Below are positions 26,038 through 26,257 of a stretch of 64,000 nucleotides of DNA, piece by piece. Origin of the DNA: a virus; IMG/VR virus record IMGVR_UViG_3300046804_004438, positions 32,001 to 96,000 of that record, one strand, 5' to 3'. The notes beneath the pieces are model-generated. The model was not told where the DNA came from, did not search any database, and saw only the letters and a program-made list of their open reading frames with translations. The translations under genes were made by a program, and so were the position numbers. Position 1 is the first letter of the stretch. Each line of letters opens with the position of its first letter.

Positions 26038-26070
26038 AAAAGGGGAGAGTTTATTCTCTCCCCTTTTTTT
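26038..26070. terminator. intrinsic terminator, bidirectional
   Basis: AAAAGGGGAGAG-TTTATT-CTCTCCCCTTTTTTT. Confidence 0.85.
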
Positions 26071-26074
26071 GTTT

Positions 26075-26257
26075 TTATGAATTAAGAGAAGGATGTAGAG
26101 GGAAGGATTGAGGATAGTAGTGAGTGTAGTAGTTTATTAGATTTTGGTAGTTAATATTATATGGAAGATTATATGTTTGAAGTTGTTGTAAGAATTGTAT
26201 TTTTTGTTGGATTGTGTTAAGGGATTGGAATGTTGAGTAGATATAATTGAGGTCCAT
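26075..26257 (-). CDS. 60-aa protein encoded by a G-less mRNA
   Basis: own promoter motif, AAAGGAG RBS, ATG, TAA and downstream terminator; no G after codon 2. Confidence 0.65.
   Translation of the reverse strand: MDLNYIYSTFQSLNTIQQKIQFLQQLQTYNLPYNINYQNLINYYTHYYPQSFPLHPSLNS

Follow-up and report, generated by a model that had tools for sequence, protein, structure and literature searches.

How can a protein-coding gene be written almost entirely in three letters, and what would drive it there? The question is raised by ORF60, a minus-strand open reading frame (ORF) of a virus genome fragment that coincides with a 190-nt run containing no cytosine on the opposite strand. The window analysed here is a stretch of 64,000 nt (positions 32,001 to 96,000) of the 110,386-bp IMG/VR virus record IMGVR_UViG_3300046804_004438 (G000), whose CheckV completeness is 68%; positions are those of the window unless a record is named. 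Comparison with related genes lends good support to selection at the nucleotide level, which appears to have removed G from the coding sense strand in one clade of the ORF60 family.

Base counts over the + strand from 26064 to 26253 gave C 0, T 81, A 55 and G 54, reproducing the C-free stretch and the hand count of a first-pass annotation of this DNA. That annotation had also proposed a computation of the longest single-base-free runs genome-wide, and this sets the 190-nt run well apart: the runner-up C-free run in the whole record is 59 nt, the longest G-free run is 94 nt, and when the bases of the genome were shuffled 200 times, the longest run lacking C or G had a mean of 57 nt and a maximum of 86. 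About 4e-14 C-free runs of at least 190 nt are expected in the genome. The base-free run is confirmed to be far beyond chance.

The 94-nt G-free run lies on the + strand at 30731-30824 and corresponds to a C-free sense strand in a minus-strand gene, where it covers an acidic C-terminal tail, DEDEDKYEDDEDGFDYGEDE, and a gene junction. Its cause is protein composition, and it serves as a comparator for what protein composition alone can produce.

ORF60 lies in a putative early promoter and stem-loop cassette

ORF60 and its flanking signals are arranged as follows.

26064..26253, + strand: C-free stretch, the minus-strand message being G-free (base counts)
26075..26257, - strand: ORF60, 60 aa, with a TAA stop at 26075-26077 (ORF list, family profile, AlphaFold2 (AF2) model, dN/dS)
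26265..26271, - strand: Shine-Dalgarno (SD) sequence AAAGGAG, last base 7 nt 5' of the ATG (read from the sequence)
26280..26308, - strand: early-promoter-like cassette TTGCCT-N17-GATATT upstream of ORF60 (motif repeat)
26375..26406, + strand: putative divergent copy of the promoter cassette, directed toward the + strand early genes (motif repeat)
26044..26063, - strand: stem-loop GGGGAGAG/CTCTCC followed by a T-run, predicted intrinsic terminator of the ORF60 unit (terminator scan)

The sense strand of ORF60 has G solely in its opening ATG-G, 2 of 183 nt (1.1%), the lowest value among 270 ORFs of at least 45 aa; the next, at 8.1%, is an apparent shadow ORF. Its RNA is 29% C and 1% G. Near-identical promoter cassettes, of the form TTGNNT-T-rich-N-GATATT, occur four times within 1 kb (25835-26636), and two of the four point apart from a central palindrome. 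The copy that precedes ORF60 reaches a score of 8/12 for the sigma-70 consensus, too low to pass a generic promoter scanner, and the leader of ORF60 also occurs in relative L053. On the other side, 11 nt separate the stop codon from the stem-loop, which also reads as a + strand terminator, and the next promoter follows at 26024-25996. By RNA folding, the terminator is the sole stable structure in the predicted ORF60 transcript. Six G lie between the promoter motif and the ATG, with further G in the terminator stem; every G of the predicted transcript belongs to the short leader, to the start codon or codon 2, or to the paired bases of the terminator stem. As the first-pass annotation had described, ORF60 stands under the left-hand motif of the divergent promoter pair and has a ribosome-binding site and a terminator. 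Overall, ORF60 is well supported as a genuine, translated, immediate-early-type gene in a predicted promoter-plus-stem-loop cassette.

G depletion marks one clade of the ORF60 family

An exhaustive profile search with ORF60 and its relative L002 collected 52 proteins of 44-73 residues at E ≤ 1e-3, and DNA was obtained for 38 distinct family genes. Twenty-two of these have an ordinary G content of 17-27%, six are intermediate (7-15%) and ten are nearly G-free (1.1-4.9%), the last being found on freshwater and marine (TARA) contigs whose own GC content is 34-47%. After the ATG, the ten low-G genes together contain 30 G in 1,476 nt (2.0%), 24 at first and 2 at third codon positions; for the ordinary members the count is 694 G over 3,402 nt, of which 228 occupy third positions. 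Local codon usage predicts 6.5-12 third-position G for the low-G and intermediate genes, and 0-2 are observed (P ≤ 3e-4 each). Stop codons follow the same pattern, with nine TAA and one TGA in the low-G clade versus 11 TAA, eight TGA and three TAG among ordinary members. The 30 nt 5' of the ATG are alike in the two groups (22% versus 23% G). A tree places the low-G genes together, with composition bias as a caveat to that grouping. The first G after the stop codon is on average 15.8 nt away in low-G genes versus 11.1 nt in ordinary ones (P 0.049); both kinds of gene have A-rich spacers, and this comparison was left out of the argument.

Sequence divergence within the clade allows selection on the protein to be separated from selection on the nucleotides. 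Pairs of low-G members have a synonymous divergence (dS) of 0.7-1 or are saturated, with a ratio of nonsynonymous to synonymous divergence (dN/dS) of 0.09-0.21, and no G-introducing synonymous change is listed in the five low-G pairs compared. Across the whole family, conservation holds at residues that can be encoded without G (F, K, L, N-L-P-Y, I-N-Y and L-I). It is solely in the low-G clade that conserved residues requiring G give way, each to one of similar chemistry whose codons need no G. A Trp that is invariant in all 22 ordinary members becomes Tyr or Phe, an Asp present in 20 of the 22 becomes Gln, Asn or Ser, and a Glu, likewise present in 20 of the 22, becomes Gln. Further swaps take Val to Ile, Ala to Asn or Tyr, and Arg to Lys or Gln; Met is lost, and Lys, His and Pro are kept. 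Lys also falls in frequency, which is as expected if charge balance is maintained after the loss of Asp and Glu.

Because synonymous sites are saturated yet nearly G-free, dN/dS is low and conserved G-requiring residues have been swapped, these sequence comparisons support well that nucleotide-level selection removed G from the coding sense strand in one clade of the family. The removal is equally well supported at synonymous sites, at the stop codon and at positions that determine amino acids. It is a clean natural case of a nucleotide-level constraint prevailing over conservation of the protein: one invariant Trp and one near-invariant Asp have been rewritten into a three-letter alphabet. 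This upholds the selection on the nucleic acid that the first-pass annotation had proposed, since G-lessness is kept across the clade while amino acids and synonymous sites drift. Among the homologues, the ten genes of the low-G clade retain the depletion, and most family members have ordinary G. A full-text literature search found no published description of natural G-free early phage genes.

Sequence authenticity and a hint of transcription

The first-pass annotation had raised the possibility of an assembly artefact, which is countered on three sides. The region is matched by contigs from three studies, two of them exact across the parts that they cover. One of the exact contigs is a possible source of the window, and it alone spans the whole 190-nt run. 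The third contig, from an independent freshwater study, is a strain variant with 13 differences in 155 nt at 26151-26305. Five of the differences listed fall inside ORF60, and one of them, + strand G26197C, changes Gln21 (CAA) to Glu (GAA), the residue found in L002. Finally, independently assembled relatives display the same low-G bias.

A possible trace of expression comes from metatranscriptome data.

26115..26267, strand unassigned: 153-nt contig from a freshwater metatranscriptome, 100% identical (run X6)

These positions are the only part of 25300-27100 (1.8 kb) covered in that run. The contig is a weak hint that ORF60 is transcribed, DNA carry-over being possible.

The ORF60 protein family

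A profile built from 53 family sequences matches G000 58108-58257, within ORF60, at E 9e-25. The family consensus is roughly MDLxYIYxxFKxLxTxxEKVxFLKxLxxLNLPYDINYxNLIxAW, and alignment columns place the whole conserved core in ORF60 (F11, K20, L24, N-L-P-Y, I-N-Y and L-I). An AF2 model of ORF60 made with the family alignment has helices at residues 3-12, 16-28 and 37-47, with a predicted local distance difference test (pLDDT) score of ~95 over residues 1-40, and the final ~13 residues are predicted to form a disordered tail. It is well supported that ORF60 encodes a ~45-residue three-helix domain of a widespread, unnamed family of T4-type aquatic phages. The closest protein relative, P0001, is known as a protein; it has the same C-terminal tail and carries eight residues with G-requiring codons. 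The sole cultured carrier is Pelagibacter phage HTVC008M, in which a 108-residue protein (AGE60506.1) matches the domain at E 2e-13 and is encoded by a gene of ordinary G content.

ORF60 has no Pfam or PHROG match, and searches of Pfam, PHROGs and the ESM Atlas gave no function. A Foldseek comparison of the model with PDB and BFVD returned no informative fold neighbour; one marginal BFVD match is a 108-residue protein, possibly the HTVC008M homologue. Against cultured phages, neither megablast of 3 kb nor tblastn of ORF60 and of a marine family member gave a match. A word-indexed protein search with ORF60 was also empty, and the exhaustive profile search was needed to recover the family.

Five large records (G000-G004) carry the family gene, in a single copy each. 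All five also encode a two-piece transfer-messenger RNA (tmRNA) of the alphaproteobacterial type (Rfam RF01849), four of them above the gathering threshold.

G000 51113-51447 (window 19113-19447): tmRNA, RF01849
G001 15208-15595: tmRNA, RF01849
G002 133119-133802: tmRNA, RF01849
G003 5630-5979: tmRNA, RF01849
G004 73782-74089: tmRNA, RF01849

The presence of this tmRNA in all five records indicates alphaproteobacterial hosts. The source of the window is an uncultured freshwater T4-type phage, probably pelagimyophage-like and with an alphaproteobacterial host. The phage tRNAs (Leu-UAA, Arg-UCU and Met) bear no relation to the ORF60 codon set.

Possible avoidance of a target base and its alternatives

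The G-free sense strand of ORF60 is at the same time a C-free transcribed DNA strand, and the costly target could therefore be either base. As the best explanation overall we tentatively favour target-base avoidance in a real early gene. An agent with single-base resolution in the infected cell would make every G of the message, or every C of the template, costly, and a gene that needs first, unfailing expression would shed that base. Whichever strand is the target, a by-product would be a structure-free message without internal AUG, GUG or UUG starts or SD-like sites.

One possible form of this explanation, less likely than not although we give it the most weight among the mechanisms considered, links the C-free template to cytosine modification by the phage. 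The phage lineage would replace or decorate its cytosines, and a C-free template would stay readable by host RNA polymerase even where a host enzyme attacks the modified base or the modification slows transcription. The genes that bear on this proposal lie in other records that carry the family gene.

G001 96615-97290 (L068:616-1290): dCMP (deoxycytidine monophosphate) hydroxymethylase, adjoining a dCMP-deaminase-like gene
G003 97768-98247: TET/JBP dioxygenase, at about the map position of the G001 hydroxymethylase
G002 117241-117708 and 51010-52053: TET/JBP dioxygenase and C5-methyltransferase

Among complete genomes, G001 alone has a G-depleted family copy (13 G in 150 nt), and its hydroxymethylase is full-length and of the T4 gp42 type (E 3e-84 to PDB 1B49). 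The likeness to cytosine replacement in T-even phages (gp42; PDB 1B49/1B5E) thus lies in the co-occurrence of a gp42 homologue with a G-depleted family copy in G001; the difference is that no gp42-type gene is seen in the sequenced part of G000. Three large records with ordinary copies have no dCMP hydroxymethylase, although two of the three have a TET/JBP gene, one of these together with a C5-methyltransferase. Gene-by-gene mapping indicates that the part absent from G000 is precisely the one syntenic to G001 55-112 kb, in which the G001 hydroxymethylase and the G003 TET gene are situated; the best of the contigs that extend the G000 end is 78% identical. The first-pass annotation had suggested a C-free template readable despite cytosine hypermodification, and this idea gains weak support from the G001 hydroxymethylase, with no such gene found in the 68% of G000 that is available.

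The window itself contains further genes that may be relevant.

56464-57231, - strand: DNA/RNA non-specific endonuclease, 255 aa (Pfam Endonuclease_NS, E 9e-51), with a homologue in G001 and none in G003
57242-61205, - strand; 27677-28606, - strand; 43099-45651, - strand; 16724-17437, - strand: sugar-nucleotide-type genes

The latter set comprises GDP-mannose-dehydratase/epimerase-like, radical SAM, two methyltransferase, group-1 glycosyltransferase, cytidylyltransferase-domain and 2-oxoglutarate/Fe(II) (2OG-Fe(II)) oxygenase genes. We counted the endonuclease together with the sugar-nucleotide, glycosyltransferase and cytidylyltransferase genes toward a modified-cytosine template, as suggestive but thin evidence.

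Several observations weigh against target-base avoidance, in particular against its cytosine form. No cytosine-modification gene was found in the 110 kb of G000, a record that is 68% complete. The link between hydroxymethylase and G depletion comes from one complete genome, in which the family copy is partly depleted (13 G in 150 nt). Whole-genome scans of two other near-complete hydroxymethylase phages revealed no G-free gene: in G034 the lowest-G SD-preceded ORF (48687-48896, + strand, 69 aa) has 9% G and 38% C, and the second phage has none. To our knowledge, T4 itself has no G-free genes. Bearing equally on every version, the leader (6 G), promoter and terminator stem keep their template C and RNA G, so that avoidance cuts the number of targets about five-fold and does not abolish them. 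Nor was any G-specific nuclease or modifier identified. For ORF60 alone, codon-usage tests within G000 depend on the reference set, third-position G being ~4-6% in structural and late genes and up to 22% in early-region genes; the clade-wide result is unaffected. Scans of three phages without a hydroxymethylase found no G-poor ORF, both the family gene and a hydroxymethylase are missing from 20 large relatives, and 24 hydroxymethylase-bearing records have no family gene. A literature search found no published link between hydroxymethylcytosine (hmC) and template composition.

The costly base could instead be the G of the message, a version that we consider only slightly less probable. Here a host or phage nuclease or modifier that depends on G (a G-specific or G-preferring endoribonuclease, a ribosome-associated mRNA interferase or an RNA-modifying toxin) would act on exposed single-stranded mRNA, and the ORF60 message would survive because its leftover G are covered by the initiating ribosome or enclosed in the terminator stem. 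The placement of every transcript G in the leader, start codon, codon 2 or paired stem agrees with this, and the near-total rather than partial removal of G suggests a cost per base. The alpha-type tmRNA of this phage and of four other phages with the family gene would fit frequent truncation of mRNA during infection, except that it does not discriminate, occurring also where the family gene has ordinary G. G000 does encode the DNA/RNA non-specific endonuclease listed above. A search for RegB (PF10715) in five genomes gave no match, with controls likewise unmatched, and is hence uninformative. Against a general hazard to early messages, no other SD-preceded ORF of G000 is G-depleted, and a neighbouring 366-aa gene has 22.5% third-position G. 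Avoidance of target sites has a familiar counterpart in phage genomes that avoid restriction sites; ORF60 differs in dropping a whole base and not a motif of 3-6 nt, in doing so in one gene, and in overriding invariant residues. Another likeness is engineered, for single-protein production: transcripts from which ACA, the sequence recognised by MazF, has been purged by synonymous and conservative changes with the protein kept are still translated in MazF-expressing cells (PMC5408214). Of the G-dependent mRNA attack put forward in the first-pass annotation, the general form is still tenable, and escape from CmdT-type ADP-ribosylation targeted to GA is disfavoured. The total of GA in the low-G clade is far below that in ordinary members, but 23 of its 30 surviving G stand within GA, so that GA is the best-tolerated context and not one that is specifically lost.

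The remaining explanations dispense with a target base. Optimised expression, in which a frame without G, and hence without G-C and G-U pairing, structure, internal starts or SD-like sites, would give maximal clean translation of a protein required in quantity in the first minute, seems improbable to us. The coding region of low-G genes indeed has a predicted folding energy of about -3 kcal/mol per 100 nt, versus -23 in ordinary members, and in E. coli the structure of the mRNA over the whole ORF is predictive of how efficiently it is translated (PMC5318159). The avoidance is also confined to the reading frame, with the leader spared. At two-fold pyrimidine-ending codons ORF60 has a C/(C+T) of 0.58 against a median of 0.24, the highest of 100 genes. 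A high value at such codons is a signature often linked to high expression. However, highly expressed genes are generally not G-free, promoters and ribosome sites are just as strong in ordinary members of the family, and the return diminishes: going from 6 G to 2 G loses little structure, yet an invariant Trp and an Asp were sacrificed. Furthermore, the C-rich frame pairs with G of the ribosome site in the minimum-energy fold, the opposite of what such optimisation predicts. A role of the G-free, unstructured RNA as a platform that loads Rho (as a translation-gated attenuator or decoy), or else Hfq or S1, is highly unlikely. Its 29% C and 1% G match the composition that defines Rho-utilisation (rut) sites (reviewed in PMC4496710 and PMC9160355), which are C-containing, G-poor, unstructured RNA of at least 80 nt, and in L019-L021 a G-poor ORF described below adjoins its downstream genes without an intervening terminator. 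In the ORF60 clade, though, the conserved trait is the absence of G and not an excess of C, which varies from 15 to 29% overall and falls to 7% at third positions in L056 and L023. The ORF60 stretch, moreover, lies inside a frame under strong purifying selection, hence translated, which would exclude Rho, and the intrinsic terminator directly after it would leave Rho gating nothing to control. Least credible of all is a by-product of the protein, in which selection would favour an uncharged, Q/N/Y-rich surface and an AT-rich codon preference would complete the effect. Low charge is also seen in a few members for which the protein alone is known, among them P0003, which uses Ala, a residue that needs G; and the comparator at 30731-30824 demonstrates that low-complexity composition can yield long base-free runs. 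Yet the substitutions track the codon table and not chemistry, third-position G and G-containing stops are avoided even in loci of up to 47% GC, and synonymous turnover in the listed pairs brings in no G. These synonymous-site data largely refute the by-product explanation.

Avoidance of a target base, should it hold, points to a strong agent of single-base resolution acting on early phage genes. A connection between DNA hypermodification and early transcription would be new to phage-host biology, as would a so far unrecognised attack on mRNA that depends on G, and base-free ORFs in promoter-terminator cassettes would offer a computable signature for the genes whose expression matters most to phages. 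The cytosine form could be extended to a general rule, unlikely when taken as a whole, by which immediate-early cassette genes avoid the base that pairs with the phage's own modified DNA base. Messages of cytosine-modifying phages would then be without G and those of guanine-modifying phages without C, and the first genes would stay transcribable from a chemically altered or defence-damaged template. The ORF60 clade would represent the cytosine arm of this rule, and its three-helix protein would be a first-line counter-defence factor.

Two other mechanisms suggested in the first-pass annotation fared poorly. Transcription that continues when GTP is limiting is disfavoured, given the 6 G between promoter motif and ATG and the further G of the terminator stem; in addition, purifying selection on the protein implies that the message is translated, and translation needs GTP. 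The synthetic G-less cassette, an artificial non-coding tool for in vitro transcription assays that is read without GTP, resembles ORF60 in being a transcribed stretch of similar length with a G-free RNA. ORF60 differs in being natural and protein-coding, with a leader and terminator that need GTP. A role as R-loop primer at an origin is unsupported, since ORF60 is a conserved protein-coding gene (dN/dS 0.09-0.21) with its own predicted terminator. From what is generally known of R-loop formation, G-free RNA is also the least R-loop-prone kind. Oxidative G damage, nitrogen economy, glycine or sulphur auxotrophy of SAR11-type hosts, anticodon-nuclease evasion and avoidance of protospacer-adjacent motifs (PAM) or restriction sites were considered and dropped, as none offered any handle.

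Cassette turnover and neighbouring genes

The ORF60 unit resembles the promoter-early plus stem-loop (PeSL) cassettes of the T4-type phages RB49 and phi1 (Arbiol et al. 2010, PMC2839356). It is small, lies between a repeated motif resembling an early promoter and a predicted terminator stem-loop in a unit-dense region, and is carried by some close relatives and not by others, as are dispensable PeSL ORFs. It differs in that the description in PMC2839356 says nothing on base composition, and the promoter and terminator of the ORF60 cassette are predicted ones. The family gene is present in L002 and L053, and it was not found in five close relatives of G000, whose records are 22-69% complete.

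In L019-L021 the place of ORF60 after the early promoter is taken by an unrelated 87-codon ORF, ORF87 (L020:4133-4396), which leads straight into the downstream genes with no terminator between. It has 10 G in 264 nt and 26.5% C, with 2 third-position G versus 12.8 expected. Its seven known relatives are all rich in S, T, Q and N. Membership of ORF87 in the ORF60 family was considered and rejected: a hidden Markov model (HMM) gives a marginal 18-residue alignment, at E 0.02 for one sequence, and we treat the two as unrelated.

Directly 3' of the ORF60 terminator, at 25871-25975 on the - strand, lies a 34-codon ORF encoding a very hydrophobic product, which is preceded by its own TTGACT-N17-TATTAT promoter and an AAGGAG site.

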